This document shows, piece by piece, positions 4,499-23,333 of a stretch of 64,000 nucleotides of DNA. Source of the stretch: Rubripirellula sp. GTDB taxonomy: Bacteria > Planctomycetota > Planctomycetia > Pirellulales > Pirellulaceae. The stretch lies in the NCBI GenBank assembly GCA_965216875.1, contig OZ244207.1, positions 3,328,001 to 3,392,000 on the forward strand, read 5' to 3'. Both the position numbers and the translations under genes were made by a program. How positions within the stretch are numbered: the first letter of the stretch is position 1; every line of letters begins with the position of its first letter. The notes below the pieces were generated by a model. It was given only the letters and a program-made list of their open reading frames with translations, was not told the origin of the DNA and ran no database searches.

Positions 4499-4541
4499 GC
4501 GACGGTCGCAACAAACCCATCCCCCAAACGCAGGTTCGCTC

Positions 4542-5880: not shown

Positions 5881-6792
5881 CTACGAACGGTACTTGCCAA
5901 CTGCCGTCACGGTCACTTCGCAAGTCACCTCGTTCGGATTGTCTGCCATCACCTCGAAGTCGCCAGTGTCGGGATCGGCTTTCGGTTCCTCGCCAACTGA
6001 GTTCCCGTAATAGTCGGGCTCGGCAGAGAGGACATCAAATGAACTCGATACCGGTCGCGTGAATTCGAGCTGCGTCTTCGTGACGTCGCCGATCGTCTTG
6101 ATCTTTGCCTTGGTGTCACGAAAAGCCGACGCGATGGCATCACGGTAATCCGCCGCGGGCACAATCGCCATAAAGGTGAATGTCGGGTCACCTACCTTCG
6201 TTGTTTCCTCACCGTAGCTGTACTCACTCATCATCGCTTCCATCTCGACAGCCAACTCTTCCTGAGCGGCCGAGACAGGTTGCTTGTCCGCGCTGCTGGC
6301 AACATCGCGTTTACGTATCTTTTCTGTTAGCGATTTCGTTTCAACGATTCGTTGCAGGTCATCATCACCCGGCAGCGGCCATCTCGCGGTCAGTGTTTGA
6401 AGAATCGACACGCTACGCGTTTGCTCGAGCATCTGTTTGCCCCGTTCGCCACCGCCATATTGCTGCATCATCATTTGCATACGCTGGGCCTCTTCCTGAG
6501 AACTGGTCCCCGAAAGCGTCGGCTTGCCCAGTTCGATGCTCTCGGCAATCGCCTCGAGTTCGACCAAGCGTTGCTTCGCGATATCGATACGTCGCTTCAG
6601 TTCTTCTGCGGCTTGCGGCAACTCGCTGCTACGTCCTTCGATCTGAACAGTCATCACGAGGAATTTCGGTGTCGCTTTGATTGCTGAGGTGGCCGTCGCA
6701 TAAACGCCATCGCTACCCGACCGACCCTCGTACTGTGCCGACGCCACCGACACGGCGCTGATCAGTAGCACCACAAACGCAATGATTCTCAT
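5881..6792 (-). CDS. Exported hypothetical protein, possibly SIMPL/DUF541-like
   Basis: Clear signal peptide (MRIIAFVVLLISAVSVASA). The beta-strand/helix pattern and C-terminal VTCEVTVTA resemble SIMPL proteins; this assignment is weak. Confidence 0.65.
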   Translation of the reverse strand: MRIIAFVVLLISAVSVASAQYEGRSGSDGVYATATSAIKATPKFLVMTVQIEGRSSELPQAAEELKRRIDIAKQRLVELEAIAESIELGKPTLSGTSSQEEAQRMQMMMQQYGGGERGKQMLEQTRSVSILQTLTARWPLPGDDDLQRIVETKSLTEKIRKRDVASSADKQPVSAAQEELAVEMEAMMSEYSYGEETTKVGDPTFTFMAIVPAADYRDAIASAFRDTKAKIKTIGDVTKTQLEFTRPVSSSFDVLSAEPDYYGNSVGEEPKADPDTGDFEVMADNPNEVTCEVTVTAVGKYRS

Positions 6793-6984
6793 CTCTCATC
6801 CTGTTGAAGTAAGCCAAATGAAGTTGATAAGTCTCGATCGTCGCGAATCGAAGATTCCTTCGGACGAATGTCCCAATCAAGATGCGTGCCCCGGATAGTG
6901 GCCCGGAACGTGTCTTGCGATCAAGCCCTGAAAAGTCCTGCCTCATGACGCGCTAAAGCAACGCGTTGGCAACGTTCTCGCAAG

Positions 6985-9900
6985 TCAGGTGAGTTGTTCC
7001 ATTCCAACATCTTTGCGTATCCGTTTGCGCAGCGCGAGTGCCTTGGGGCCAGTCATGATGCGTATTTTCCAGTAGAACTCTTTGATGTAGTAGTTGTCGC
7101 GCAATTGCGGATAGATCTCTTCGAGAATCGAAACATCCTCGTCGTGGTTGCGTGCGGCGATTGCCATCACCAACAAATCCGTTGTTCCCGACAGGTAGCG
7201 GCTGAACCCTTCCGATTGCGCTTGATCGAGAAGCGGGCCAAGGTCAACCGATTCGCCCATCACGACAAGCGCATAGGTCGCGAGGGCAACAATCTCCTCT
7301 TCTTCACTATCCAACAGCGGAAGAAGATGCTCGCGAGTGACATGGGGTGTGATTCGGGCGATCGTCAATCGACCACTGGCATACACGTCCTCTTGCAGAC
7401 CTGAAACGTCCAAGTGGCCCACCTCGGTCGAGGAGACTCCTTCCTGCCCTTGCGTGATGTAGCTCAGCGCGACCGGACGCAGCACATCGTCATCGAGAAA
7501 CTTCACCGCCAATGCTGAAGCTTCCGGAGCTTTCCGAGCCGACATGGCGAATCGCGCCCAGTCTCGTCGCAGCGGCGCCGAAAGAGACGCATCGGCGTAA
7601 TCATCACGGACCACATCGACGACTTTCGCCGGGTCAATCTCGGAAAGGACGGAGAGACCGACCATCAACGCAGCCGATGGCTCAAGCGATTTGAGATCTT
7701 CGGACAAGCTCTCCGCAACCACATCGTAGCTCTGCCCGTCTTGTTGCATGAAATACTCGGATCCGGTTGCCACCATCATCAAGTTCGTGCGCAACTGCCA
7801 TCCATGATCAAATGCGTCGATATCGATTTGCTTGAGCGAATTCCAGAATGCTTGGTGTGACACGGTCGGGTCGTACTTCCGCGACTCTTGCAATATTCGC
7901 GGCAGCAAGTCCGCGGCTTCCGGCGTCGCCCCAATCAACTGCAACAGTTCCCGGCGTGTTTTGGGATCAAGCCATTTGTACACGTTGGTGATCTGTTTGC
8001 GTGATGCCGATTCGGATGCGACGTCAAGAATCTCTTTTGCCGATGCCGTTCCGCCCAGTCGCAAAACGGCCATCATGACGTCGAATTCAGCTTCACCACC
8101 CTTGGCCGCCAGCTCCTCAAGCGGTTGCCGCAATCCTTCGAGCCACGATTCAATGTCATCCGGTCGCTCTCGCCAACGTGCCAGCCAGTCATCGTATTTA
8201 CGCGTTGCTTCGAGCTGGCGGTTGTTGGTCGGTTCGCCCGACTCTTGAACTGCCTGTGGCGGTGCGTCGCCCTGAAAGGGATCCTCCATCAGTTCGACAA
8301 TCTCCGTCGGATCCGCGTCAACTTGGATGGGGACATCACCACCGAAAAGATTGCCGAGAGCCTGAAGAATACCGCCCTGTTGAACTGCGTCTTGGCCATC
8401 GGGCTTGGCTTGAACGTTAGGAGTTACGGGAACGGTTTCCTGGGTCGGCTCGACAAACGGGTCGTCCTCTGTCACCGCAACGCCTTGCTGATCGAGGCCG
8501 GTTGCATCAACAACCTGGAAGGGCGAGTTATCTTCTTCCGAAGCCTCCACGGCAGGTACGCCACCTTCCTCAATCACTTGAAGCATGGTTTCGATGTCTG
8601 CCTCGGCGGGAATTGCAGCGGGTGCAGCAAACAGATCCTCAATCGCCGCATCAAACTCGGCCGGTCCCATTTCCAAGTTGGACGGTGGACTTACCCCCAC
8701 CTTCACACCGATTCCGCCAGAGCGGATCACGGGCACGGCAGCCCTTCCCGGTACAGGGCGTGCCGATCCGCTGGACGTTGGCACACCAAACGGCGAATCA
8801 TATCCGAACCCAAGCTGATAGACATTTTCCGTAGGAGGCGTGGGCGGAACAGGTGCCAAACGGGAATGATTAGCATCCAGCCATGACGAAAGCGCACGTG
8901 CAGCGGAGACCTTTACTTTCGGATCACCATCAAGCACGCCGCGGCGGATGAAGTCTTTGCGGTCCTTGGTCGAGAATCGAGTCATCGCTTCGAGGGCAAA
9001 GATGCGATCGGCCGCAACCTCCGATTCGAATCGTTTCACCAAGAATTCGCGCGCGTCACGTTTCCCTTCCGAGTAGGTCAGCCGCGGCAGAATCTCAGCA
9101 CGAATGTTCGGGTTCTTCCAGGCAACTTCGAGTAACTTCGAAAACGACTCTTTCTGGTCGCCGGCAACGACCGCGGGAACAATCTTGCTGAGAACAAAAC
9201 TGTCATCGTCTTCGAGAAGGTTCCGAGCCGCCTCTTTGAGATCAACAGGGAACGCCACTTTTTTCACGCCACCAACACTTGGCGCACTCTTCGCTGCTTC
9301 AGTGATTCGATGTGAAATTGCCTCGGCAACCGCGGCTCGCACCTGCCAATCGGAATCCGAAGAAAGCCGTTTCAATGCGGCATGCGATTGTTCGAGATTG
9401 CTGTTGAGTTCCTTCAAAAGCCGCACGTAGTAGACCAACAGTCCCGAATCGGTTTCTTTCAATGCATGCTGGCTGACTGGCTTGACCAACGACGCCTTGG
9501 GGTTGTCAAGCCAAAGCTTCAGTACCGCAGCTCGAACGTTCTTGTCGGGATCATCAAGCAGCCGGGTCAATCGCGTTGTGTCACCACCGCCAGCGTTTTG
9601 TAGCCCACGCAAAGCCAACTCACGAACGAGCGGGTCGCTGTGTCCGAATAGCGTCTCCAACAGCGGCAAGTCTTCCGAGCGTGCTTGATCGGCGAGCTGC
9701 TTGGCAGCAGTGCGCCGCTCGTCGGCGTCCATCGATGCAAGGGAGTCGGTTGCCTCCGGCAGGCGAATCGCAAGCGTTGGCGCAGAGACCAAGCGGTACA
9801 AAACGGAAGCGAGTCGCTGGCGCGCCGTGTCCGTCGTCTCCGTTTCAAGTCGCTTGTCGACCGATGGTTGTAGTTCTTTGCCGGCCATCCCGAGCGACTC

Positions 9901-10782
9901 CACGGCACCATCACGGGCATCACCGCGTCGCACGAGTCGATCGAGTTCCAACTCCGCTTCGTCGAGTGCTTGTTGCTGCATCTGCGAATGCAAATCGCTT
10001 TGCTCGGAAAACGTTTGACTCCAGATCTTCAGCTCAACGATTCGATCTTTCGTGATCGTCTCGGGCTGCCAGGGATCGAGGCCGTCAACTGGAGCCGTCC
10101 ATCGACGCAGGACATCGAGCGCCGCAAGACGGCTGCGTAGCCTCGGTTTTTCAAAGGCCGTGATCACGCTTGCGGCAACCGATTGGGGATGGGCGATCAA
10201 CAAACCGGACGCGGCTGCACGCTGCCGTGGCGAGCGATCCGCCAGCATCTCCAACAGCACTTCCGTCTGCTTGTCGCTAAGCGATCCTCCGTTTCCCAAA
10301 CTCTTGACCAACCGCAGCGCCGCCCGTTTCGCTTTGTACTGCTCTTGGCCGTCGCGCAGAAACTGCATCAAGGCTTCGCCTTCGATGTATCCAACATGCT
10401 CGGCGATCACTTCACCGGCCGAATTCATCACACGCATCGTGGGTAGAGCGGCAACGTCGTCGACCGGTGCCTCTTCGCTTGGATGGTCAACGTCGATCTT
10501 GACCAAGTGCATGCGAGATAGCAGATGGATCGCCTCGGCATCCTTCATCGCTTCGGTCAAGAGTTTGCAGGGGCCGCACCAAGCCGCTTCAAACTTAACC
10601 AAAATGGGCTTCGAGTCGTCTTCCTCTGCTGCTTCGATCGTTGAAATCCAATCCTCACTCCAAGAATCATCTGCGCGCAGGTGCGTCCCCGGAGCAGGCA
10701 ACAGCATCACGACAACCGCACTGGCAAACGCCCGCAGCATGACAGTGTGCATTCGACGAAGAACACTATTCTTTTGCGTCAT
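6985..10782 (-). CDS. Large exported thioredoxin-domain + HEAT-repeat protein
   Basis: Signal-like hydrophobic N-terminus, KFEAAWCGPCK, repeated HEAT motifs (DPLVRELAL, DKNVRAAVL, DWQVRAAVA, DPKVKVSAA) and a long acidic/Pro-rich linker. Start uncertain (10752-10860). Confidence 0.85.
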   Translation of the reverse strand: MTQKNSVLRRMHTVMLRAFASAVVVMLLPAPGTHLRADDSWSEDWISTIEAAEEDDSKPILVKFEAAWCGPCKLLTEAMKDAEAIHLLSRMHLVKIDVDHPSEEAPVDDVAALPTMRVMNSAGEVIAEHVGYIEGEALMQFLRDGQEQYKAKRAALRLVKSLGNGGSLSDKQTEVLLEMLADRSPRQRAAASGLLIAHPQSVAASVITAFEKPRLRSRLAALDVLRRWTAPVDGLDPWQPETITKDRIVELKIWSQTFSEQSDLHSQMQQQALDEAELELDRLVRRGDARDGAVESLGMAGKELQPSVDKRLETETTDTARQRLASVLYRLVSAPTLAIRLPEATDSLASMDADERRTAAKQLADQARSEDLPLLETLFGHSDPLVRELALRGLQNAGGGDTTRLTRLLDDPDKNVRAAVLKLWLDNPKASLVKPVSQHALKETDSGLLVYYVRLLKELNSNLEQSHAALKRLSSDSDWQVRAAVAEAISHRITEAAKSAPSVGGVKKVAFPVDLKEAARNLLEDDDSFVLSKIVPAVVAGDQKESFSKLLEVAWKNPNIRAEILPRLTYSEGKRDAREFLVKRFESEVAADRIFALEAMTRFSTKDRKDFIRRGVLDGDPKVKVSAARALSSWLDANHSRLAPVPPTPPTENVYQLGFGYDSPFGVPTSSGSARPVPGRAAVPVIRSGGIGVKVGVSPPSNLEMGPAEFDAAIEDLFAAPAAIPAEADIETMLQVIEEGGVPAVEASEEDNSPFQVVDATGLDQQGVAVTEDDPFVEPTQETVPVTPNVQAKPDGQDAVQQGGILQALGNLFGGDVPIQVDADPTEIVELMEDPFQGDAPPQAVQESGEPTNNRQLEATRKYDDWLARWRERPDDIESWLEGLRQPLEELAAKGGEAEFDVMMAVLRLGGTASAKEILDVASESASRKQITNVYKWLDPKTRRELLQLIGATPEAADLLPRILQESRKYDPTVSHQAFWNSLKQIDIDAFDHGWQLRTNLMMVATGSEYFMQQDGQSYDVVAESLSEDLKSLEPSAALMVGLSVLSEIDPAKVVDVVRDDYADASLSAPLRRDWARFAMSARKAPEASALAVKFLDDDVLRPVALSYITQGQEGVSSTEVGHLDVSGLQEDVYASGRLTIARITPHVTREHLLPLLDSEEEEIVALATYALVVMGESVDLGPLLDQAQSEGFSRYLSGTTDLLVMAIAARNHDEDVSILEEIYPQLRDNYYIKEFYWKIRIMTGPKALALRKRIRKDVGMEQLT

Positions 10783-12130
10783 CGGTCGCCTCATCGGTTC
10801 CATGAACGATTTGGTCCCAGTAGTCGTCATAGTCAAAGTGCGGGCTGTTTTCATGGTCATGGCACACCAGACACGATTCGGCAGCTTGCCAAGGTGTTCT
10901 CACATCGGTGTCGGCAACGTGCCCGCTGCTTGGCCCATGACAACTTTCACAGCCCACTTCGATTCGATCCATCGTTCGCCGGCGATTGATGAATCCTCCC
11001 GCTAGTCCGAACCCCGTTGTGTGGCACCTCTGGCACGACGAGTCGACATGCGCCCCCACCTCTTCGAGCGTTGCCCACGCGTGGGCATGAGCCGATTGGT
11101 GCCAGATTTCTTGGTCCGCCTCGTGGCACTCTTTGCAGGATTGCGACCCAACGAAGGTGTTCTCTTGATCTCCCGCTTCGCTCCCCACGCCCATCGAATC
11201 AAAACTGGTATCGAGCGCAGCGAAGTCGTATTTGTCTAGCCGCTCGCGAAACGACTTCAAGTTCGCCTGCTGTTGCTCATCCTTGTCGAGAGATTCAACC
11301 ACCTCGTGCAAGTCCGCCTCCCAGTGATCGCCGTCACCTGAACTCGCGACCTCGCCCGTAATTCTTGCGATGAATTTGCCTTTGCTCGCGATCGCGGTCA
11401 TCAAAGTTTGTCCGAATCGCTTTGGCGCGACACTCTGCGGAGTCTTGCCACCAATGATGACATCCACTTCAGGAAGATTGCTCGACAACTCAGTCAGTTC
11501 TTCCGGCTCGACATAGGCTAGTACAACCGCCGAGTCGTAGTCGCCACGCCGGTTTTCCAGTTCGGCAAGGATGGCCTTCTCGGGGTCTTCTGCTTCGAAA
11601 GATGTCAACGACGGACTGATGACACCGAGTACGAGGATCTTTCGATTGCCACGGCGGACAATCACCGATCGCTCCGCCAGGCTGCAGTCGTTGGCAAGCG
11701 TGTTGGTGCCAACAAACTCAAGATCTCCCTCTGAACTTGCTACCCGATCAATCCCGATTTCAAGCTCTTCGGTTCCGAGGTTGTGGACGGCGTACCCCAT
11801 TGCTGCTTCACCGGCAAGAATCGCGCGCAACTTCTCGACGTCGTACGCACTCGATCCGAGTGTCGCACCGCCGACGCTGACCAACAAGGATTCGCGTCCC
11901 TCGGCAAGTTTCTTCATCAACGTCGCTCGACGACTGAGCCCACCCGATTGCCCGCTCGCGCAACCGCACGGCTCAATCCAGCCTTGCGTGTCGCAGCTCG
12001 CAAGAATCACGACCGGTTGCTTCGCCGGTTTTTCAACCGTCTCGGAAGAACTGCATCCACACGAATACAGCAGCACGATCCCGCACGTGAAGCCAACCCA
12101 ATTTCGAAAACGCAACGCAAACACAGGCAA
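10766..12130 (-). CDS. Lipoprotein: 5'-nucleotidase/UshA-like N-terminal domain fused to a tetraheme cytochrome c (c554-like)
   Basis: Lipobox-like SCGC; EPCGCASGQSGGLSRRA; four CxxCH motifs (CKECH, CQRCH, CESCH, CLVCH). Confidence 0.85.
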   Translation of the reverse strand: MPVFALRFRNWVGFTCGIVLLYSCGCSSSETVEKPAKQPVVILASCDTQGWIEPCGCASGQSGGLSRRATLMKKLAEGRESLLVSVGGATLGSSAYDVEKLRAILAGEAAMGYAVHNLGTEELEIGIDRVASSEGDLEFVGTNTLANDCSLAERSVIVRRGNRKILVLGVISPSLTSFEAEDPEKAILAELENRRGDYDSAVVLAYVEPEELTELSSNLPEVDVIIGGKTPQSVAPKRFGQTLMTAIASKGKFIARITGEVASSGDGDHWEADLHEVVESLDKDEQQQANLKSFRERLDKYDFAALDTSFDSMGVGSEAGDQENTFVGSQSCKECHEADQEIWHQSAHAHAWATLEEVGAHVDSSCQRCHTTGFGLAGGFINRRRTMDRIEVGCESCHGPSSGHVADTDVRTPWQAAESCLVCHDHENSPHFDYDDYWDQIVHGTDEATDDAKE

Positions 12131-12862
12131 TCAATAACTCAAGGCATAGGCGAGGATGTTGACATTGACCACTTCGGCGTTGGTGATTTCGTTCCCGCCA
12201 CAGCAACAACAGCCCTGTGCGTGCGACGTATCGTTCAACCCATCCTGGCTGTACAAAACCGCCAACCGGTCACCGATCGAGATGCCTTCAAGGGGCCTTG
12301 GCGTGCCATGCTTGGCGGTCAACTGGTCAATGTCATAGACAGTGTGAAAAACCGGATGCTTCAAGTCGAGTTGTTGCATTTTGGTTTCCTCAAACAAGGT
12401 CGCCATTTCTCGGCGAAACGAACGATCCCATTCCGGCGAAGAACAACCTGAGGAAGCGAGCAAGAACCCACCACGCTTCAAATAGGCTCTCAGGTTGGTT
12501 CGCTCGGCATCGCCGAGCACAAATTCGCCTTCGCCCGTCATGATCAGCAGCGGATAGTTGTAAATCTCTTCGCTGCTAAGTTTGACGGCATGAAAACGGC
12601 GACTGGTCGAAATCGTCGAATCTTTTTCGGCTCGCACAAGAAAGTGGTCGGCAAAACACTCGCTAGACTTCGATCCCGCGTAAACAAGATTTGCAACCTG
12701 GACGACGCTGCCCGATTCGCCACCGACATGCGTGGGATCGGGCACCGTTTTGATCGCAGCCTCTTTGTCAGCCGGATCCTCCGCACTGCTGGTTCCAGCC
12801 AGGCAGACCGTCGTCATCATCGCCAGGCAAAGCGTTTGAATTCTCACCATGCGTCGCTCCAT
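12131..12862 (-). CDS. DUF4159-like exported protein with a C-terminal CCCC motif
   Basis: Signal peptide; YPLLIMTGEG...LRAYLKRGGFLL...HPVFHTVY; ends QGCCCCGGNEI...NILAYAL. Start uncertain. Confidence 0.8.
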   Translation of the reverse strand: MERRMVRIQTLCLAMMTTVCLAGTSSAEDPADKEAAIKTVPDPTHVGGESGSVVQVANLVYAGSKSSECFADHFLVRAEKDSTISTSRRFHAVKLSSEEIYNYPLLIMTGEGEFVLGDAERTNLRAYLKRGGFLLASSGCSSPEWDRSFRREMATLFEETKMQQLDLKHPVFHTVYDIDQLTAKHGTPRPLEGISIGDRLAVLYSQDGLNDTSHAQGCCCCGGNEITNAEVVNVNILAYALSY

Positions 12863-12890
12863 TTCGATCACGTCGTAATTGGTACGTGCT

Positions 12891-15713
12891 TTATTGGTCC
12901 ATGCTTTCAGCAATCCGGCGCAGATACTGTTCGGTTTGGCGTCGGTACCTTAGTGGCACATCACCGGAACTCGTCCGCGCCGTTTCGGGCAGTTCCGCAA
13001 TCGGATCTTCGCCTATCGAACCGACCCCAGCGGCACTTCCGCCATCGCCGCGGGCAGGCATCATCTGATTCCGATCGCCGCGTCCGCCACCACGAGGCTG
13101 CGCAAAGGGTTGATTCCCGTACAACCCGACGTTCTGGCCCGAGTTACCTCGCATCGAGTAGCCAGCGTTGGGCCCTGAATTGAGCCCCATTTGATTGAGC
13201 ATCTCTTGTAGCGCGTTGCTTCCTTGACTGGGAAGCCCCGGCGCAAACTTCTTCTTCAAACAATTGCCGGCCTTCTTGCCATTGCCTTTGCATTGTGACA
13301 AGAACTTTTCCATCTCTTCGAGTGCCGTGATCGCATGCCCATAGCCGTCGGCACCGTCAAAGCGGCCGAGGCTTTGGCGTGCTTCCGAAAGCTCCGCATC
13401 GATCGGACTTTCACCCACCGCCATCACAAAGTCAATCGAAGACTGTTTGAGTTCTTGCATGTCGGGATCGTCGCCAAGACCTTCCGCGGCCGTCGCGATC
13501 TCTTGCATCAATTCGCCTAGCTCACGTCGAATCGCAGCTTCCTCTTCGCGTAGCTGCACCACCTGTTGGCGATCCGCTTCGTCGCGAACCGTATCGTCCT
13601 GGCGGTATCGGTCAAGCGCATCGACAACAGCCCGTTGCCGCTCAACCAATTGAACAAACTTGGACTCTGCAGCAAGGATCGGTGCGATCTTTTTCAGAGC
13701 GTCCATCGGCTGACCAATCTTTTGTTTCTGGTCGTTACGTGCCTTATCGATTGCCTTTTGCATCTCGTCAGCTTGCTCTTTGGCAGTCTTGCCCTCCGAT
13801 TTCATGCTTTTTCCGCTCTTGGCCGCTTCGCGCAACGCCTTGGCCTGTTCTTTGAGTGCCTTGTTCCACTCTTGGTCGATCTCAAGCGGCAACTCCTGGC
13901 GAGCGATTTCCTCAAGGTTGCGGGCCGCCCTTTCCATCTTTTCACGAAGCGTGTCAACTTTTTCTTGAAGCTCTTTCTGCGCCTCGGCGTCATTCGGGTC
14001 CGCTGCATCAAGCTCTTCTTGCAACTTCGCCGCTTCGGCCGACAGTTCCTCGAGCATCCGACGTGCTTGACGGAACTTGTTCTCGAGCATTTGACGTCCC
14101 TGCTGAGCCGCAATGATTCGATTGAACTCTCGTTGCGAAATGATGTTGATGTGCGCGAGCGGACTTTCGCCTCCTTGCGATGCCCCTGGCCGCGTGTCGT
14201 CAACGCGCGCGAAGAGCGTGATTTTGTCACCCGGTTCAAGGCCAAACGCCGCCAATGGCAAACTCGAACCGCCTTGAACGGTACGCCTCGTTTCCACAAT
14301 TGGGATTTCCAGTGGAACGGGACGCGAGCCATCAATGACTCGGTAGATCCGCATACGAGCGACACCAAAATCGTCTTCGCCGATCGCAGCGACGGGTACT
14401 TTCGTTGTCGGCGTTGCATACGACTGAGGACGTGGCTGGGCGATGCGCGCGATCGGTGGACGATCCACAAGGAGTTCGACTTCCAAACGAATCGGCGACT
14501 CACACTCAACGTCGTTTGCACCGGTCACCGAAACAATCCAGTTACCCGATCGCTTGATCGTCACTTCGCCGACGGCACGTTGTGGGTTGTCTGGCGATAC
14601 CGAAAGATCGACCGTCTGAGGCGCGAGATCACTTTCGTCGTCCAAAGGCATGAGTGTGACGCTGCCAGACTTGAGCGGACGATTGGCATCAATCGAAAAC
14701 GCGACGACCGTTCCCGAGAGTCCTGAAATGCGATCTTGCGGATATCGTGCCTCGCGCGGAGGCAGACTCGTGTAAGCCGGCGGCGTGATTGTGAAGGTCG
14801 CTGATTCAATCTTGGGTGTCTCCATCACCTGCAAATCAAACAAGCGGCTTCTGCCTCGGTCCGCTGTCACGCAGTAGGTCGTCGATTCCGTCACACGAGG
14901 CACGACCGCCTGCCAACGTCCGCCACCCCGTGGAAACATGGCAACTCGTTTTGCGTCGGGATCATCCGGTTGCCCCAACACGAGCAGCGCGTTCTCAACT
15001 CCGCCTCCGGTGATCGACGCGGTCACTTCCAAGGGCTTGCCATAGTTCAAACGAATGTCGCCGGGGCTGACATCGAACTGCAGTGGCGAATAGGGGGGCG
15101 TGTCGACGGTCGGCGCTGTGAATCGATTCCACGAGGTCCCGAATGCGCCAGGTGCAATCACGGCAAAGGCGATCATCACCAAACCAACGACACCTGCCAC
15201 GATGCTGCTCCGCCGCGATTGACTCCAAGGCGCCGCCTTCGCCGGATCCACATCGGTGGCACGCTTGGAAGCCTGTGACACCGCTACCGAGGCGATCCCA
15301 CGGGCCAGAGCTTCCGTTTTGTCGTTCTGGCCCGTCATGTTTCGATCCGCATTCTCGGGAAGTAGCTCCCAACCCGACAAGATTTGTCCACCGGTCTCGC
15401 CGACCTCATCCAACCGCCTCGCGATCCGCTCGGACGATGCACCTTTCCAAACTCGAACGAGCAACCACAAGAAGGCAACCGCACCAACCAAGATCGTTGC
15501 CGGCAAGATGCCTTGCCGCAGGCTCATCGGCAAATGCCAAATCACATCCATCCATGCCAACAAGAAAAGCACAACACCGACAGCCGCGATTGACCAAAGA
15601 CAAGCATCGACCGCACCGATCAATCGGACGCGTTTTGCCACTTCGGCAATTTGATTCTGCAAACTGCGTCCAGCTTCGGTCGATTTCGATTGTTCGGGAA
15701 TGACAGTTGCCAT
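12891..15713 (-). CDS. DUF4175-like membrane protein with Ig-like and long coiled-coil regions
   Basis: Three N-terminal TM helices, ITPPAYT, DRPPIARI, EDDFGV, a Q/E/K-rich coiled coil and C-terminal VPLRYRRQTEQYLRRIA. Confidence 0.8.
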   Translation of the reverse strand: MATVIPEQSKSTEAGRSLQNQIAEVAKRVRLIGAVDACLWSIAAVGVVLFLLAWMDVIWHLPMSLRQGILPATILVGAVAFLWLLVRVWKGASSERIARRLDEVGETGGQILSGWELLPENADRNMTGQNDKTEALARGIASVAVSQASKRATDVDPAKAAPWSQSRRSSIVAGVVGLVMIAFAVIAPGAFGTSWNRFTAPTVDTPPYSPLQFDVSPGDIRLNYGKPLEVTASITGGGVENALLVLGQPDDPDAKRVAMFPRGGGRWQAVVPRVTESTTYCVTADRGRSRLFDLQVMETPKIESATFTITPPAYTSLPPREARYPQDRISGLSGTVVAFSIDANRPLKSGSVTLMPLDDESDLAPQTVDLSVSPDNPQRAVGEVTIKRSGNWIVSVTGANDVECESPIRLEVELLVDRPPIARIAQPRPQSYATPTTKVPVAAIGEDDFGVARMRIYRVIDGSRPVPLEIPIVETRRTVQGGSSLPLAAFGLEPGDKITLFARVDDTRPGASQGGESPLAHINIISQREFNRIIAAQQGRQMLENKFRQARRMLEELSAEAAKLQEELDAADPNDAEAQKELQEKVDTLREKMERAARNLEEIARQELPLEIDQEWNKALKEQAKALREAAKSGKSMKSEGKTAKEQADEMQKAIDKARNDQKQKIGQPMDALKKIAPILAAESKFVQLVERQRAVVDALDRYRQDDTVRDEADRQQVVQLREEEAAIRRELGELMQEIATAAEGLGDDPDMQELKQSSIDFVMAVGESPIDAELSEARQSLGRFDGADGYGHAITALEEMEKFLSQCKGNGKKAGNCLKKKFAPGLPSQGSNALQEMLNQMGLNSGPNAGYSMRGNSGQNVGLYGNQPFAQPRGGGRGDRNQMMPARGDGGSAAGVGSIGEDPIAELPETARTSSGDVPLRYRRQTEQYLRRIAESMDQ

Positions 15714-15758
15714 TTCGAATCGCCTTGAAATTGAGTTCTCTGGAATCAAACGCGCCGG

Positions 15759-18050
15759 TCAAACCAGTCCGCTGCGACGCCGCAGTGTCCAGGTTGCTGT
15801 CCACATACCAAGGATGCCCAGCAAGACCCACCAACGGTCCCACGCCGGAGTGCGACGCGTCTCGATGGGAAGGTCATCAATGATTTGTTGCTGGATGGTT
15901 TCGGCGATCCGTCCCGCATCCAGCTTGTCGATTACCCGACCACCACTTTCCTTTGCAATACTCGCCAAAAGATCGTCGCGTGGATTCATGTCGAGCGCTT
16001 CGGCGATGGGTCGTCGAACTTCGAAAGCTGTCACGCTACGATCGGTCTCAGCCGCATCCTTCAGTGTGACGCGATAGTTGCCCGGTGCCAACTTTCCGAA
16101 TCGAGCCTGATAGACGCCTGGTTGATCGCCGGCGGGTTCGCAGATGATCTCTTTTGAATCCATATCACCCTCGCGAACCAAATGGACAACGGGCATTCCT
16201 TCGACCGGAACGGTATCTCGCACCAGAAGCGTCGCGGTGGCTGCCATATCGGTGGTGAACTGCGTTCGATCGCTTTGCAGCGCACGATCTTGGCCCGGTG
16301 AGAGCGCAACCCGTGACACCAGCCACTGCAGCAGTCCATTCCAAACGCTCGCGTACGTTTCGTCCGACGCGGCAAACTCGGGCGGCAGCAGCGCCCAACG
16401 CCACATGCCCGAACCCTCGACCACCACCGTGCGGCCAGCGCCGTAGGGTTGGTAGGTCACAATCGGAACCGATCCATCCGTCGCATCGCTGGCGACCAAC
16501 ACGCGCGGCAAACCGCCGCGTTTTTCGGGCGACGCATCGGTCGCCAGTGACGGCAGCGCCGCAAGCGGATCGATGTCGCCGCGCCGAGCAAGCCATCCCT
16601 CGCTGGACGAAGCGTCGGTCACCGTTGCGCGAAAACGCCGCTCGGTGTCGCGCGTCCAACGCACTGGCAACATGCGACCGAGCTTTTCCGAAAGAGTCGA
16701 CTGGGGCGCCCCCCGGGCACAGACGAGCGAACCGCCTTGCGTCGACACCCACGTTCTCAAGCGGGTCACGGTCGTGTCATCGAGATACGCTTCCGAATCA
16801 CGACCAAGCACAATCACTTGGTATTTGTTTAGCGAGTCAGCCGAACCAATCACCGACTCGGGAGTTGGCAAGATCTCCCATGGTGGAGCTTCACTCCCAG
16901 CATCCTCATTGGCCGAATCCGCATCGGCCGCAGCCTCTTCTTCGCCGCTGGGGGCACTGATCCGTTGACGACGATGCAAAAACCGATCGCTTCGCATCAT
17001 CACGAGACTCTCCAGCTCAATCGACGGATCGGACGCGAGTTTACGAGCCAGGAACTTGCTATCCCAGTACGGCTTTCCCTCGAGCAACAGCACACCGATC
17101 GGCGAATCAACGACCCGAACGAGCAAACTTGCACTGTTGTCTTCGTCGGTGGCTTCTGCTGGAAGCGAACCGACGGCAATCGAATAACGATAGAGTCCTG
17201 GTTGCTCCGGCTTTGCCGTGAAGGAAACCTCTTGTCGACCATCGCTACTGAGGGTGACCGTTTTGGTTTCGACCACTTGGCCATCCCGCATCAACCGTAC
17301 ATCGAGCGGCGCCGACTGATAACCTGCGCCCGTCACTTCGGCGGTGAGCTTGACCGGTTGCTCAACAAACGCAAGTCGATTCGCCGCCGACGTTTCGACC
17401 GCCAGGTTCTTAACCACGAGAGGCTGAGCGACCTTGACGGGAAAAAGCGGCGCGCCACGACCGCGCGCGGCCCGTGACGCCGCAACGACACGACGCGCTG
17501 CGCCGGTGTTGTGAATCCCATCGCTCAAGAACACGACCGCTTGCCCACGGGGTCGATCGGAATTGGCAGCAAGCGCGATCGCAGATGCGAGATCCGTCTT
17601 TTGGCCAGGAGCGATCTCGCCCAATTCCCCAAGCTCTCGCCCCCGCGCGTCAGCATCAAACGACAACAATCTTGTTTCGTAGGTTTCATCAAACGACGAA
17701 AGCAAGTCCTCGGCGATCTTGGTCGCAATCTGTAACCGAGTCTCGTCAGCTTCGTCTTTGTCGATAACGTCCATGCTTGCGCTGGTGTCGACCACGACCG
17801 TCACGAGCGGCCGGCCTTCGGGTGGTGGCAACGCTTCGACCCAAGTCGGGTTCAACAGCAGCACCAAGGGAACAGCCCCGGCGACCAACATCAACGCGAG
17901 TGTCCAAAGACGATTGGGGCGGGCGATGGAACTACCGCATCGCCATGCATAAACGCACCAAGCGATCGCCAGCGCAGCGGCCAACGCCACCCAAAGCGGC
18001 AATGACACGCGAGGGTCAAAATCAAGCCATGCGGGAATGATCAAATACAT
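15759..18050 (-). CDS. Membrane vWA-domain protein with CARDB-like and glutamine-amidotransferase-like domains
   Basis: VVDTSASM (MIDAS), FLSDGIHN, VLLLEGKPYWD, PYGAGRT and a C-terminal TM ending LRRRSGLV. Confidence 0.85.
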   Translation of the reverse strand: MYLIIPAWLDFDPRVSLPLWVALAAALAIAWCVYAWRCGSSIARPNRLWTLALMLVAGAVPLVLLLNPTWVEALPPPEGRPLVTVVVDTSASMDVIDKDEADETRLQIATKIAEDLLSSFDETYETRLLSFDADARGRELGELGEIAPGQKTDLASAIALAANSDRPRGQAVVFLSDGIHNTGAARRVVAASRAARGRGAPLFPVKVAQPLVVKNLAVETSAANRLAFVEQPVKLTAEVTGAGYQSAPLDVRLMRDGQVVETKTVTLSSDGRQEVSFTAKPEQPGLYRYSIAVGSLPAEATDEDNSASLLVRVVDSPIGVLLLEGKPYWDSKFLARKLASDPSIELESLVMMRSDRFLHRRQRISAPSGEEEAAADADSANEDAGSEAPPWEILPTPESVIGSADSLNKYQVIVLGRDSEAYLDDTTVTRLRTWVSTQGGSLVCARGAPQSTLSEKLGRMLPVRWTRDTERRFRATVTDASSSEGWLARRGDIDPLAALPSLATDASPEKRGGLPRVLVASDATDGSVPIVTYQPYGAGRTVVVEGSGMWRWALLPPEFAASDETYASVWNGLLQWLVSRVALSPGQDRALQSDRTQFTTDMAATATLLVRDTVPVEGMPVVHLVREGDMDSKEIICEPAGDQPGVYQARFGKLAPGNYRVTLKDAAETDRSVTAFEVRRPIAEALDMNPRDDLLASIAKESGGRVIDKLDAGRIAETIQQQIIDDLPIETRRTPAWDRWWVLLGILGMWTATWTLRRRSGLV

Positions 18051-18062
18051 CGTCGCAATTCT

Positions 18063-20180
18063 CTATGACTTGAACCAAACAAGTGTTGCCAGTTCACCAA
18101 TCACACAACCAAGCATGGCAAGTGCGGCCCACACCCAAAGTGAGTCGGTTTGCGATGCCGATTGCGCCGTCGTTTCGTAATCGAGTTTCCGACCACCCGA
18201 AAGACGCTGCTGCAAGACCTCCTGTGACAAAGCCCGCAAGTCCTGCTCGGACGGATCACTACGAACCGCCTCGGCCCACAGTGTTTGGTTCTTGTTGTCT
18301 TTGACGCGATAGACACCTGGAGCGGTCGCAGCCGTCCAGTTCCAAACGAGCGTCCCGTCATGAGATTGAATCTTCCCAGCCGGTGGATCGTCTTCGCTTC
18401 CCGTCGTGCGCGAAACCGCCACGTCATCGGGGCTCGCAATCCCAGCGGGTAGGTCACGCACAATGGGCTGACCGCTCGACGTTCCACCCACCGCGCCACC
18501 CGAGTCGGTCAGTCGCCCAACGGTTTCGACCAACATCGGAATGAAGCCCGCCTGGTAAGCGATGTTACTTGCCGACAGATCGGCGTTGAGCACGGCGAGT
18601 TTTCCAGCACCGACATCGGTGAAGTACAACAGCGTCGAACGATCCGAAAGTGTGGCGGTAACCGCATCGACGATCGCATCATCCAGTGTTCTGGTCGGGC
18701 ATCCTCCACCAACGCGCCAATGCTTGGCGGCAACCGTCAGCGTTTCGCCGAATGCGTCGAAGGGTGCACTTTCGCGATCAAAGTCTTCCACTTTCAAATC
18801 GCGTCGCTTGTCCGATTCCATCGATGCGATCAACTCGACTGGCGGCTGCATCTCGCTGCCAAGATTCTCTTGCAAGCTCTTGAGGTTGTTTGCGTCGGCG
18901 GGCCCACGAGCGATGTAAAGAACGGATTGGCCACGTCGAAGCCATGACGCAACTCGAGGCGCGACCGTATCGTCCCAGGCCTCAACATCGGTGATCACCC
19001 AAAGCCGCGCGGCTTGTGCCGTCGGAGTGTCGAGCGTGCCGGGCGTGATCAACGCCAAGTCCGAATCCTTCTGCTGTTCAAACGATTCGTCGTCGCTGTG
19101 CCGCGAAAGCGCCTGTCGGACAAAAAACGCACCATTGCCCGGACGGTTCTCGGCCTCGGTCACAATCGCAATGCGAGTTTCAGGCCGCACGCCGATGGCG
19201 ATTGGCAACACGTCATCGGCAGGCAATGCGTCATGCGCTTCGACCAACCGGACGTTTCCCCACTGCCAGCCCGAATCAGGCCAGTCGACCGAAATCTGCA
19301 TCGTCGATTCGGATTGCGCATCGACGTTGCCTTCCACCGCCCGCGTGAGTGGGCCGAGCTCAAGTTCCACTTTCACATTTCGATTGTCACCGCTGTGGTT
19401 GGCGACATCGACCAACAATGTCACCGGCTTTCCGGCGGTCGGCGTCGCCGTCAATCGCACTTCTTTGATCGCCAAGTTGCCCGGTGTTTCCTCTGACGAC
19501 ATCGCGATCAATCGAACCTCGGTGTCTTCCGGCAATGCACTGAAGTCGGCCCGTGCCCAACTTGCCCGTTGAAAGTCGCTAATCACAACCAGTTCGCGTT
19601 TGGCATCGCTTGCCGATTGAGCGAACTGGCGAGTCGCTTCGTCAAATGCAGCCGAAACGTTGATCGCGGCCCCCGTTACTTTGGCATCAGCCAATCGATC
19701 GCGCAACAGCCGCAGGTTTGCACTCGGCGTTTCGAAGACCGCACCCGGATCGTGTGAGGCAATCAACAGGTTCGCCGCGAGATTCGGTTTGTAAGCGAGT
19801 TCCTTGGCCGCCGCAGCTCTCGCTTCGTCAAACCGTGTCGCAGCTTCAGCGATCGCCCCCATGCTTTGACTTGCATCGACCAAGACAATCTTGACTCGAT
19901 CCGCTTGCTCGCCGGTTTGGGGTCTTTGGTCACCATCGAGCAATGGTCGCGCGATCGCCATCGCCAATAGCGCCACGGCCAGCGACCGAAATAGCAACAC
20001 CAGAAAATCACGCAACCGATCTTTTGCTCGTCGTTGATGCAAGGCGTCCGAAACCAATCGGATCGTCGACAACGGCATCCGAACCGGCTGAGGCCGTGTC
20101 AACAGATGGACGACGACTGGAATCGCAGCGCCACAGAGTCCGATGACAAACAACATTGGATGCATGAACATGGCGGTCAC
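18063..20180 (-). CDS. BatA-domain / vWA protein
   Basis: N-terminal AAIPVVVHLL...LLAMAIARP (BatA), LVDASQSM, VVISDFQ and a C-terminal TM. Confidence 0.88.
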   Translation of the reverse strand: MTAMFMHPMLFVIGLCGAAIPVVVHLLTRPQPVRMPLSTIRLVSDALHQRRAKDRLRDFLVLLFRSLAVALLAMAIARPLLDGDQRPQTGEQADRVKIVLVDASQSMGAIAEAATRFDEARAAAAKELAYKPNLAANLLIASHDPGAVFETPSANLRLLRDRLADAKVTGAAINVSAAFDEATRQFAQSASDAKRELVVISDFQRASWARADFSALPEDTEVRLIAMSSEETPGNLAIKEVRLTATPTAGKPVTLLVDVANHSGDNRNVKVELELGPLTRAVEGNVDAQSESTMQISVDWPDSGWQWGNVRLVEAHDALPADDVLPIAIGVRPETRIAIVTEAENRPGNGAFFVRQALSRHSDDESFEQQKDSDLALITPGTLDTPTAQAARLWVITDVEAWDDTVAPRVASWLRRGQSVLYIARGPADANNLKSLQENLGSEMQPPVELIASMESDKRRDLKVEDFDRESAPFDAFGETLTVAAKHWRVGGGCPTRTLDDAIVDAVTATLSDRSTLLYFTDVGAGKLAVLNADLSASNIAYQAGFIPMLVETVGRLTDSGGAVGGTSSGQPIVRDLPAGIASPDDVAVSRTTGSEDDPPAGKIQSHDGTLVWNWTAATAPGVYRVKDNKNQTLWAEAVRSDPSEQDLRALSQEVLQQRLSGGRKLDYETTAQSASQTDSLWVWAALAMLGCVIGELATLVWFKS

Positions 20181-21202
20181 CCTGCGCGCTGCACGAGGAA
20201 TTGGCTCAGGGTATCCAAGTAGCTGGTCGCCGTACTGATCCGACGATAGTCCGCACCGACGGCGGTCGATATCGTTCGAGCCCGCTCAAGATGCTCGCGC
20301 CAACGTTTGCGGTAGAGCTCGCGAACCTCATTGACGCGGCAGCGCACGTTGCCTTCGCCTTCGAGACCTTCGAACTGAAACGCAACACCTTCGGGCAAGT
20401 CCTCTTCGTCCGGATGGATCAAATGCAAAATGACAATCTCCCATCCGCGATGACGGTAGTTTCGCAGTGACGCCGTCAAATCGGTCAGATCGTCGACCAA
20501 CAAATCACTCAGCAACAACATCACGCCGCGACCATGGACGCGACCGATGATCGTTTCGAGTCCGCCCGCCAAGTCGGTTTCGGGAACCGTCTTGATCGAC
20601 TCGATCGCTTCATAAAGTGACCGAGCGTGCGATTCGGTACTTCCCGGGGCCAAGTATTGATGTAGCCCGCCGCCTACAAGTCCCAATCCCGCTTGATCGC
20701 CGCCGCGTGTGACGAGATGTGTCAGCGCGGTAGCAAAGTATTGCGCGTACGTCAGCTTGTCGGGTGCGTCGCTGCGACTAGCGCCACCCGGTAACTTTTT
20801 ACGTAGCCAACCGGTGGCGGCACCTTGAGTCGGGCGACCGTCGAATTGCATCGAACCGCTGCAATCGATCACCGAAAGGCAGGAAAGATTCGTGTCTTCC
20901 TGAAAGCGTTTGATGTAAGCGCGACCGGTCCGCCCGAGGACCCGCCAATCGAGGCGTCTCAGGTCGTCGCCTGGCGTATAGGGTCGATAGTCCGCGAACT
21001 CACCCGAGCCGCCCATCGCGCGCGATCGGTGACGGCCACTGTAGGGACCGTCGACCCGATTGGGCGTCACGAACCGCATGTGTTCGAGCGCCACCAATTG
21101 ACGTAACTCAAGGAAGCGGTATTGCGTTTCGGATCGGCCCTTCGCCCCCTCTGCCGCGCTCGCGCCAATATTCTTCGCCCCAACCCCCGATGCAACACTC
21201 AC
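20177..21202 (-). CDS. DUF58 protein (MoxR-associated, vWA-like)
   Basis: GRHRS...GSGEFADYRPYTPGDDLRRLDWRV, IDCSGSM, LLSDL. Confidence 0.93.
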   Translation of the reverse strand: MSVASGVGAKNIGASAAEGAKGRSETQYRFLELRQLVALEHMRFVTPNRVDGPYSGRHRSRAMGGSGEFADYRPYTPGDDLRRLDWRVLGRTGRAYIKRFQEDTNLSCLSVIDCSGSMQFDGRPTQGAATGWLRKKLPGGASRSDAPDKLTYAQYFATALTHLVTRGGDQAGLGLVGGGLHQYLAPGSTESHARSLYEAIESIKTVPETDLAGGLETIIGRVHGRGVMLLLSDLLVDDLTDLTASLRNYRHRGWEIVILHLIHPDEEDLPEGVAFQFEGLEGEGNVRCRVNEVRELYRKRWREHLERARTISTAVGADYRRISTATSYLDTLSQFLVQRAG

Positions 21203-22200
21203 GATTGCACCTTGTCGAGCAAGTGTTGCACGATGCCATCGGCGTCAATCTGATCGCCGATCGCGCGGTGATTGCCGAGAACGCGATGCCGCAAGACAGG
21301 CAGGGCAATGGAACGCACATCTTCGGCTGTGGGAGCGGCGCGGCCCGACAAAAGCGCCTTCGCTTTCGATGCCATCGCAAGGCACTGAGATCCACGAGGG
21401 CCCGCCCCAAAAGCGACGTATTGCTTGACGAATTCGTCAGCGTCCGATTCGTAGGGGCGACTAGCGCGACACAGGCGAACCACATAATCGATGACGTTAT
21501 CGGGCACCGGGGCGGCCGTGACCAGCTCACGCAATTCGATAAACGCGTCTCGAGTCAGCGTCGATTGCGGAAGCTCCGGTGTGGCGCCCGCCGTCCGGCG
21601 CACGATATCTTTTTCTTGATCCGAGGTTGGGTAGCCGACATGAATCTCCATCATGAAGCGGTCAAGCTGAGCCTCGGGCAACGGGTAAGTCCCCTCCTGC
21701 TCGATCGGGTTTTGCGTCGCAACCACCAAGAAAGGGTCGTCCATCGCATGCGTCACGCCAGCAACCGTTGCGTGCCGTTCGGCCATCGCTTCCAAAAGAG
21801 CCGATTGCGTCTTTGGCGTCGCGCGGTTGATCTCATCTGCCAAAACCAAATTGGCAAAGATAGGTCCGCGCCGAAAAACCATTTCGCGTTTTCCCTCTTC
21901 GCCTTCGCCCATCAACTCATAGCCCGTGATATCCGAAGGCATCAGGTCAGGCGTGAATTGGATTCGCGAAAAGTTCCAATCGAATGCCGATGAAAGCGCT
22001 TTGACCACAAGCGTCTTTGCCAAACCGGGTACACCAACCAAGAGGGCGTGCGATCCGGTCAAAGCGCAAGTTAGCAATTGATCAATCGTCTCCTCCTGAC
22101 CGACGATGACCTGATGCAACGCATCGCGAATCGACTGAACCTGACGACCAAACCCTTCAATCCGTTGGGCGGTGCTGTTGTCACTAATGTCCACTGCCAT
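21199..22200 (-). CDS. moxR: MoxR-family AAA+ ATPase
   Basis: Walker A GVPGLAKT, RIQFTPDLMPSD, Walker B LADEINRA, ATQNPIEQEGTYPLPEAQLDRF. Start set at MAVDIS (22200). Confidence 0.95.
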   Translation of the reverse strand: MAVDISDNSTAQRIEGFGRQVQSIRDALHQVIVGQEETIDQLLTCALTGSHALLVGVPGLAKTLVVKALSSAFDWNFSRIQFTPDLMPSDITGYELMGEGEEGKREMVFRRGPIFANLVLADEINRATPKTQSALLEAMAERHATVAGVTHAMDDPFLVVATQNPIEQEGTYPLPEAQLDRFMMEIHVGYPTSDQEKDIVRRTAGATPELPQSTLTRDAFIELRELVTAAPVPDNVIDYVVRLCRASRPYESDADEFVKQYVAFGAGPRGSQCLAMASKAKALLSGRAAPTAEDVRSIALPVLRHRVLGNHRAIGDQIDADGIVQHLLDKVQS

Positions 22201-22751: not shown

Positions 22752-23333
22752 ATGGATCCTCAACAACTGGAACAGCACATCGAGGCGGTCAAAGGGGGCA
22801 AACGCGCTCAGTTTCGTCCCATCGTCGAGGCGATGTTGCCGGTCCTTCGCTCCTACGTTGTGGCGCGCAGCCTGCCCGGAATCGATGTCGACGAGATCAT
22901 TCAACGCGTTTTCGTTGAAACCTACAAGCGAATCGGCGAATACCGTTCAGGAACCCAGTTCCGCGCCTGGCTGATCACGATCGCTCGCTACCAACTACTG
23001 ATGGAAGCGACGCGTCTCAGACGCCAAGCCGATTACCATTCGCGTTTTGTTCCGGTCGCCATTGCCAGACAGATGGAGCAGCGACTTGCCGATGACGATT
23101 CCGAAGATCAACGATTGCCCTACCTTCGCGAATGCCTCGACGAGATCCAAGGCACTTCACGGGAATTGATCCGCCATCGATACGAAGCCGATCTATCGAT
23201 GAACGACATTGCAGCAATCACTCAAAGGACCAACGGCGCAATTCGCAAACAACTGTGCCTGATCCGCAAACGCTTGCACGAATGCATCGATGCAAAGATG
23301 AACGCGCAAAACGGTTTCGTGGGAGGCATCTAA
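22752..23333 (+). CDS. ECF-type RNA polymerase sigma-70 factor
   Basis: DEIIQRVFV...FRAWLITIARY (region 2) and LRECLDEI...IRKRLHECI (region 4). Confidence 0.92.
   Translation: MDPQQLEQHIEAVKGGKRAQFRPIVEAMLPVLRSYVVARSLPGIDVDEIIQRVFVETYKRIGEYRSGTQFRAWLITIARYQLLMEATRLRRQADYHSRFVPVAIARQMEQRLADDDSEDQRLPYLRECLDEIQGTSRELIRHRYEADLSMNDIAAITQRTNGAIRKQLCLIRKRLHECIDAKMNAQNGFVGGI

Follow-up and report, generated by a model that had tools for sequence, protein, structure and literature searches.

A MoxR-DUF58-BatA envelope operon with a candidate thiol-redox arm in Rubripirellula

The planctomycete Rubripirellula sp. (assembly GCA_965216875.1, contig OZ244207.1) carries a run of nine genes in which a MoxR-type ATPase set is followed by three genes for cysteine-bearing, predicted exported proteins. 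The window analysed here is the stretch of 64,000 nucleotides from position 3,328,001 to 3,392,000 of that contig, and in its list of open reading frames (ORFs) all nine lie on the minus strand, running from 22200 to 5881. An earlier note, made from the letters alone, had described nine co-oriented genes with conspicuous Cys motifs and suspected an undescribed envelope assembly or redox system; the ORF list and the motif positions bear out the nine genes and every Cys motif. The reading favoured here, which we hold with evenly balanced confidence, is that of a conserved nine-gene envelope operon in which MoxR and DUF58 would remodel three membrane scaffolds, and in which the three predicted exported Cys proteins would form a reductive thiol-disulfide relay. 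The genes, from first to last, and the three motifs are as follows.

21199..22200, minus strand: MoxR-type AAA+ ATPase, predicted cytoplasmic (Pfam AAA_3, E 7e-61)
20177..21202, minus strand: DUF58 vWA-like protein, predicted cytoplasmic adaptor (Pfam DUF58, E 1e-34)
18063..20180, minus strand: membrane protein with BatA-N double transmembrane (TM) region, vWA domain (DASQS) and C-terminal TM segment (Pfam BatA, VWA_2; TIGR02226)
15759..18050, minus strand: membrane protein with two N-terminal TM segments, vWA (DTSAS), Ig-like and GATase-like parts (Pfam VWA_2, CARDB)
12891..15749, minus strand: DUF4175-like protein with three TM segments and an extended C-terminal coiled-coil part (no Pfam match)
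12131..12913, minus strand: CCCC-type DUF4159 protein, predicted exported (Pfam DUF4159, E 1e-26)
10766..12130, minus strand: UshA-like pseudo-phosphoesterase (PCGC) with c554-type tetraheme domain, predicted lipoprotein (Cytochrome_C554, E 7e-12; NF041198, E 8e-57)
6985..10860, minus strand: thioredoxin (WCGPC) on a long HEAT-repeat scaffold (Pfam Thioredoxin, HEAT)
5881..6792, minus strand: SIMPL (DUF541)-like protein, last of the conserved run (Pfam SIMPL, E 1e-3, below cut-off)
12200-12211: CCCC motif of the DUF4159 protein
11960-11971: PCGC motif of the cytochrome
10567-10581: WCGPC motif of the thioredoxin-HEAT protein

Layout and conservation of the run

With the longest starts, the intergenic gaps from moxR to the SIMPL-like gene are -4, -4, 12, 9, -23, 0, -95 and 192 bp. 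Under likelier internal starts, the gap between the DUF4175-like and DUF4159 genes becomes about 28-40 bp (by Met positions) and the junction of cytochrome and thioredoxin becomes a 17-bp overlap or a 13-bp gap, the true start of the thioredoxin-HEAT gene lying likely near 10782 or 10752. The moxR frame is open up to 22323, yet homolog alignments begin at 22200. Promoter and terminator scans of the region gave a signal no higher than that of shuffled sequence. Most family labels of the earlier note stood, and two proved weaker than it had stated, both being based on paralogs: paralogs of the 763-aa vWA protein match GATase1_like, and the 952-aa coiled-coil protein shares 24% identity with a paralog that weakly matches DUF4175 (E 1e-4).

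A scan of GTDB genomes detected at least 581 relatives. The counts that follow refer to the best 80, all labelled Planctomycetota and by their labels spanning Pirellulales, Planctomycetales, Isosphaerales and Phycisphaerae, and were taken only over loci with room for the gene in question, several loci being frameshifted or split. The UshA-like cytochrome neighbours DUF4159 in 73 of 77 loci, thioredoxin-HEAT in 68/71 and the coiled-coil gene, directly before DUF4159, in 67/73. The remaining genes follow with 52/60 (vWA-GATase), 48/56 (BatA), 46/55 (DUF58), 43/53 (moxR) and 43/57 (SIMPL, by a profile count that supersedes the 33/57 of a single-query tblastn), and the complete set of nine is present in 25 of 44 loci. 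The synteny of the Cys genes with this MoxR clade, on which the earlier note had made its proposal hang, thus extends across these relatives.

Conservation of CCCC in the 80 loci is partly circular, because CCCCGGNE served as a search pattern; profile searches are free of this circularity. A motif-independent profile of the DUF4159 subfamily gave 33 matches in 31/401 genomes of the phylum, and CCCC was found in 31 of the 32 profile-found relatives that were mapped, the other one reading CxCCC. Profile searches of this kind detected the subfamily in 25/301 genomes of the class of genome G164 and in 28/401 of the host's own class (the samples overlap), and a CCCC-DUF4159 gene is carried by 7-8% of the sampled Planctomycetota genomes. 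A metagenome scan with query P0017 added 11 distant loci, and the additional clusters returned by atlas searches were only unnamed or DUF4159.

Three genomic surroundings of the operon are recorded here for completeness. An extracytoplasmic function (ECF) sigma factor and a FecR-like anti-sigma gene (window 22752-25004, plus strand) are divergent from moxR and were not seen at the matching place in the upstream regions of relatives. A family 2 glycosyltransferase gene (window 4365-5702, plus strand) converges on the 3′ end of the operon. In a same-genus genome, G002 (L001/L137), the stretch directly upstream of moxR holds several genes for multiheme cytochromes.

The three cysteine proteins

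The DUF4159 protein is the most tightly linked accessory of the set. Its six conserved Cys (C86, C157 and C235-C238) are present in 85 of 85 homologs, and the CCCC codons of the window gene read TGT TGT TGC TGT. Together with PCGC of the cytochrome (84-85/86) and CxxC of thioredoxin-HEAT (88/90), these residues are conserved, as the earlier note's proposal had needed them to be. The DUF4159 model (pLDDT 77.6) has the architecture of a class I glutamine amidotransferase (GATase)-like fold, with Foldseek matches to PDB 4I66 (TM 0.76) and to GATase domains; the CCCC loop itself is of low confidence in this model. A Cys-His-Glu triad is absent: C157, after the GGF strand, is invariant and no conserved His-x-Glu occurs near the C-terminus. 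Hoch_4089, the DUF4159 protein of PDB 4I66, differs in having no elbow Cys and a single Cys in the CCCC-equivalent loop.

Database records of Verrucomicrobiota-type homologs bear on the fourth Cys of the motif. Of the best 120 homologs of P0098 (the named ones are Verrucomicrobiota), 63 end at ..GCCC; the sequence is CCCCGG in 56 and CCCWGG in one. A stop exactly after CCC in 63 of 120 records points to an in-frame TGA and to selenocysteine (Sec) at the fourth position, so that C238 corresponds to a probable Sec position in Verrucomicrobiota-type homologs. When Cys is exchanged for Sec at just one position, that residue is usually catalytic, and the fourth Cys is likely the reactive one because of this Sec-like pattern. 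The CCC-TGA pattern itself had 0 matches in viral contigs and occurred in 0/401 Planctomycetota genomes. The host genome has a tRNA-Sec (contig 7784436-7784530), yet both Sec-type positions of the operon are Cys.

An even count of six Cys would also suit structural disulfides, in which case thioredoxin, VKOR-DsbA and CcdA would be folding helpers and the machine would carry out non-redox envelope assembly. Tandem DUF4159 proteins (P0054-P0150) have an elbow CCG, and their counterpart of the CCCC loop often contains CxxC; since sister planctomycete families thus share the clustering of Cys, some of the six may be structural. In one homolog the elbow Cys is missing along with the third Cys of the loop. 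All six are kept in 54 of 62 single-domain representatives, so that disulfide pairing by covariation rests on single sequences and is a hint only. The 19 of 69 mapped loci in which no redox gene is linked (see below) fit this alternative as well. The probable Cys-to-Sec swap is confined to one position, however, and no tetraheme CxC/CxU protein is known to act as a folding helper, so that a purely structural role appears improbable.

The cytochrome combines an UshA-like N-terminal domain with four CxxCH motifs. It scores 193 bits against NF041198 (UshA-like), below the curated cut-off of 275, as a related subfamily in the Cys form. C55 and C57 form the PCGC motif; in a set of 17 sequences the second Cys is invariant (17/17) and the first is Ala in one. 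A lipobox-like Cys, C26 (LLYSCGC), is kept in 74 of 86 homologs. Against PDB 2Z1A, of the binuclear metal ligands (DxH, GD, GNH, H, GHxH) the first Asp alone is kept, and the N-domain is by this alignment a pseudo-phosphoesterase that has lost the nucleotidase metal ligands. The heme domain aligns to cytochrome c554 (PDB 1BVB, E 4e-21) and falls below the cut-off of NF043010. Distal His residues H348, H404 and H443 are present in 82-85/86 homologs; for the four hemes there are three distal His with full conservation, as there are in c554. Unlike the window protein, c554 of Nitrosomonas is a free cytochrome without a CxC domain. A single-sequence model of the cytochrome (pLDDT 35) was discarded.

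In the accessible parts of PMC13188914 and PMC2398784, the UshA-like (seleno)protein family NF041198 is listed with a CxU motif, of which PCGC is the Cys form (PCG(C/U)), and the likeness extends over the nucleotidase-like domain and the tetraheme tail; these parts assign the family neither a function nor a gene context. Outside any MoxR operon, the host genome contains another UshA-like tetraheme gene with PCGC (contig ~2635096-2638171; L100:7096-10171). This solitary gene stands after DUF1573 Ig-like and O-antigen-ligase-like genes, with a DsbD-TM match about 12 kb away. Another variant is found at locus L114 (11585-16155 and 679-1881), where a heme-less UshA-like protein (PCIC, with a DUF1573 tail) and a thioredoxin-HEAT protein without CxxC accompany a CcdA-like gene just before moxR.

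In the thioredoxin-HEAT protein the dipeptide between the two conserved Cys is variable and the cis-Pro-type position is kept (xPxxR loop). The protein has a single N-terminal hydrophobic segment and no CcdA-like tail. The SIMPL-like protein has a signal-peptide-like N-terminus with one hydrophobic segment and no conserved Cys. These and all other export and topology calls were made from hydropathy, a lipobox-like Cys and inspection by eye, that of the DUF4159 signal peptide by eye only.

Redox partners and the direction of electron flow

The neighbourhood of CCCC-DUF4159 was mapped in 69 loci, i.e., the one in the window and 68 from sampled genomes, after the removal of L003 and L136, whose contigs end at DUF4159. 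A thiol-redox partner adjoins the gene in 50 of them: a heme lipoprotein in 31, VKOR-DsbA in 8, a CcdA-like domain in 6 and thioredoxin alone in 5. In its 8 loci, VKOR-DsbA is the first gene of the operon or stands directly before DUF4159, and none of these loci has a cytochrome. The CcdA-like membrane domain, recognised by an NPC/CTG Cys pair together with 5-6 TM segments and lacking a Pfam DsbD match, comes with a glutaredoxin-like domain and is fused to thioredoxin-HEAT in three loci and encoded by an adjacent gene in the other three. No locus combines two of the heme, VKOR and CcdA-like partners (L110, cut by a contig end, was left out of this test). In the DUF4159 tree, the window falls in a well-supported clade of 30 rows, 28 of which have the cytochrome; the CcdA-like loci branch next to this clade with moderate support and the VKOR loci lie further out. 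The VKOR-DsbA and CcdA-like partners of sister loci, together with the probable Sec forms, lend independent support to a thiol-redox reading of the Cys genes, which the earlier note had offered as one possibility.

Under the favoured reading, electrons would pass from the tetraheme PCGC lipoprotein to thioredoxin-HEAT and from there to the reactive fourth Cys of CCCC-DUF4159, thioredoxin-HEAT acting to recycle DUF4159. In the nearest sister loci, the glutaredoxin-like and CcdA-like tail of thioredoxin-HEAT would deliver cytoplasmic electrons. Comparison of the two groups suggests that the window clade lost this tail and carries the cytochrome, so that the cytochrome likely takes over the electron supply at the membrane side; an unlinked DsbD could be an alternative source. 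The likely purpose would be to keep the DUF4159 thiol reduced for the repair or reshuffling of disulfides in envelope proteins held on the scaffold. A CcdA-like domain is absent from the window locus, and a search of the host genome with a CcdA-like query found none elsewhere.

The same partners could be read in the opposite direction, with the cytochrome as a thiol oxidase that replaces VKOR/DsbB: electrons would flow from thioredoxin through CxC into the hemes, with O2 or the respiratory chain as the next acceptor, and the operon would form disulfides in envelope clients. The position of VKOR-DsbA at the head of the operon or directly before DUF4159, always without cytochrome, agrees with such a role, as does genus g67, where G115 has VKOR and no cytochrome and G423 has the cytochrome and no VKOR match. 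In addition, one of the four hemes may have an open site, only three distal His being fully conserved. What speaks against an oxidase is that thioredoxin-HEAT itself bears a CcdA-like domain in the closest sister loci, and that heme loci and VKOR loci occupy separate parts of the tree. A need for the cytochrome through lack of VKOR and DsbB was considered and rejected: 17 of 31 cytochrome genomes lack both, and so do 10 genomes without a heme cytochrome at the locus, so that this absence is not specific to cytochrome genomes. On balance, an oxidase seems unlikely.

Several observations weigh against the reductive relay itself. No partner of any of the four classes was present in the stretch fetched for 19 of the 69 loci. 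The exclusivity of heme versus CcdA/VKOR partners (0/30 vs 14/38, naive Fisher p 1e-4) comes down to only 3-4 independent pairs and is non-significant after correction. The heme-carrying genomes G549 and G642 have a CcdA-like gene elsewhere, and the host genome has unlinked DsbD-TM and DsbB-like matches. The Sec-like pattern of Verrucomicrobiota-type DUF4159 was read from protein records, the TGA codon and a selenocysteine insertion sequence (SECIS) being predictions at the level of DNA, and sister planctomycete DUF4159 families cluster Cys at matching sites. VKOR-DsbA is normally oxidising, which points in the opposite direction, and c-type hemes accept electrons from disulfide chemistry more easily than they donate them to disulfides. 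Finally, Leptospira bat deletions had no oxidative-stress phenotype, according to the accessible part of PMC3557215.

An ordinary MoxR core could also have become the mere neighbour of an independent Cys-redox cassette with which it shares no function. Cys genes occur without a core nearby at L037, L089-L091, L111, L112, L126 and L164, a pair of DUF4159 with thioredoxin or VKOR being kept in three of these loci (L111, L112, L164); the host genome has paralogous cores without Cys genes, and its second UshA-like tetraheme gene is solitary. However, the coiled-coil gene is followed by DUF4159 in 67/73 loci and in most distant loci, and VKOR and CcdA-like genes stand before moxR, flanking the whole operon, in several lineages. 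Hence we consider chance neighbourhood very improbable. Two of the core-less loci have a layout of their own. At L126:7438-11348, a DUF4159 gene of the CxCCC type has a DUF255/DsbD-N thioredoxin gene on one side and a WCGPC thioredoxin gene on the other, the MoxR core being absent from the surroundings, and L164:7031-9018 is a two-gene unit of VKOR-DsbA and CCCC-DUF4159 with no MoxR.

The ATPase core, known systems and significance

The ATPase side of the operon is intact. MoxR has a Walker A motif (GVPGLAKT, 22012-22035) and a Walker B motif (DEIN, 21826-21837), both kept in 44 homologs. [quoted passage not shown] By hydropathy, MoxR and DUF58 have no hydrophobic segment, and the BatA-vWA, vWA-GATase-like and DUF4175-like proteins have 2-3 each with basic loops between them. 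The BatA-vWA protein has three, with an Arg-rich loop between TM1 and TM2. In the 763-aa vWA-GATase-like protein, C444 is invariant in 48/48 close homologs and absent from a more distant clade. The C-terminal Cys motif of the coiled-coil protein (C820) is partly conserved, in 61 of 87 intact homologs. A proposed link by conserved Cys between this protein and DUF4159 was downgraded on the same count, the invariance seen in one alignment being a selection effect.

Since MoxR and DUF58 lack hydrophobic segments and the Cys proteins look exported, any action of the one on the other must pass through the membrane proteins. By analogy with NorQ/NorD, MoxR and DUF58 would exert a pull on one of the three membrane proteins and move the periplasmic vWA, Ig and coiled-coil arms of these proteins. 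According to the accessible part of PMC9976466, the acidic residues bound by the NorQ/NorD MIDAS sit where a membrane helix ends on the cytoplasmic side; the DUF58 MIDAS may likewise grip an acidic residue on the cytoplasmic face of its membrane partner, as NorD does on NorB. With such a grip at the cytoplasmic face, the ATPase would reach the periplasm only indirectly.

This topology bears on two claims of the earlier note. It had cast the Cys proteins as a possible client assembled by the ATPase; direct action is topologically unlikely, the module also occurs without the core nearby and 19/69 loci have no redox partner in the stretch fetched. It had further suggested metal chemistry, in which CCCC and CGC would bind metal and the Cys proteins would be loaded or assembled by the MoxR/vWA set. 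Cys clusters and Sec are able to ligate metals, and the three MIDAS-type motifs are intact. MoxR/vWA pairs insert metals elsewhere, as far as the accessible part of PMC9976466 goes. However, the ATPase is predicted on one side of the membrane and the Cys proteins on the other, the metal site of the nucleotidase fold is destroyed, and the recurrent neighbours are disulfide enzymes and not metal transporters. Metal loading of the Cys proteins thus appears quite improbable.

The MoxR-DUF58-BatA-vWA core is itself ordinary, and the special part is the CCCC-DUF4159 subfamily. The host genome has 16 MoxR-like and 10 DUF58-like matches. Paralogous operons at seven other loci of this genome carry, as extra genes, prenyltransferase-like toroids, other DUF4159 types, TPR (TPR-peptidase) and EF-hand proteins; no thioredoxin, VKOR or cytochrome family was found among the 31 proteins scanned from these seven loci.

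Several known systems resemble parts of this arrangement. Vanderlinde et al. (2011) reportedly described the Rhizobium leguminosarum operon RL3499-RL3502, which the title presents as broadly conserved and as needed for the shape of the cell and an intact envelope, and we know of no redox arm for it. In the DsbD/CcdA-thioredoxin and DsbA-VKOR/DsbB pathways, an exported CxxC thioredoxin is likewise paired with a membrane-side electron partner, and both partner types occur in sister loci; the window locus differs in having neither CcdA nor VKOR, a tetraheme lipoprotein being in their place and the relay being tied to an AAA+ machine. Bat operons carry BatD and TPR-type proteins (BatC/BatE), and neither family is among the nine proteins of the window. 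As far as the accessible part of PMC3557215 goes, Bat operons share with the window MoxR, DUF58-type and BatA-N/vWA membrane proteins in one run, and a periplasmic complex and an export of reducing power have been proposed for B. fragilis. The window operon adds GATase-like and coiled-coil membrane proteins, DUF4159 and its own thioredoxin and cytochrome.

NorQ/NorD, CbbQ/O and RavA/ViaA have in common with the window a MoxR ATPase, a soluble MIDAS partner and predicted cytoplasmic action on a membrane protein (PMC9976466, accessible part). In the window the partner is DUF58, and two more vWA domains are predicted periplasmic. A metalloenzyme client within reach of the cytoplasm, a trait of the NorQ/NorD type, does not recur in the mapped loci, and the Cys proteins look exported. 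The MoxR-vWA ternary conflict systems have VMAP, iSTAND, FtsH or a beta-propeller as third component together with variable effectors (PMC7159879, accessible part); none of these four is among the nine proteins of the window, and the gene set is stable. In full-text literature searches, no title or abstract opening among the matches listed describes the operon, most subscription papers lying outside their coverage. The main texts of PMC13188914 (a 2026 review), searched for DUF4159/PF13709, and of PMC13326102, searched for DUF4159, do not mention the family. Apparently, then, this is a known kind of MoxR-DUF58-BatA envelope system with an undescribed thiol-redox arm, here heme-based.

A bolder extension, possible though rather doubtful, would make the CxC/CxU tetraheme lipoprotein a third membrane-side coupler, interchangeable with CcdA and VKOR; it would serve an unlisted selenoprotein family, CCC-U DUF4159, and this family would in turn provide the catalytic subunit of a trans-envelope machine, powered by an AAA+ ATPase, that repairs or refolds envelope proteins by redox chemistry. 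If it is true that the tetraheme cytochrome can replace CcdA or VKOR, hemes and periplasmic disulfides would be connected by a new route. The operon also supplies a gene context for the UshA-like selenoprotein family and makes DUF4159 a candidate selenoprotein family.

MoxR-DUF58-BatA operons are very common, and the reducing-power role of Bat is proposed, not shown. Because the present subfamily carries its own redox parts with single mutable residues (C238 of DUF4159, C57 of the cytochrome, C95/C98 of the thioredoxin), the Bat reducing-power proposal becomes directly testable, and the nine-gene set would give such MoxR gene sets a concrete chemistry to test.

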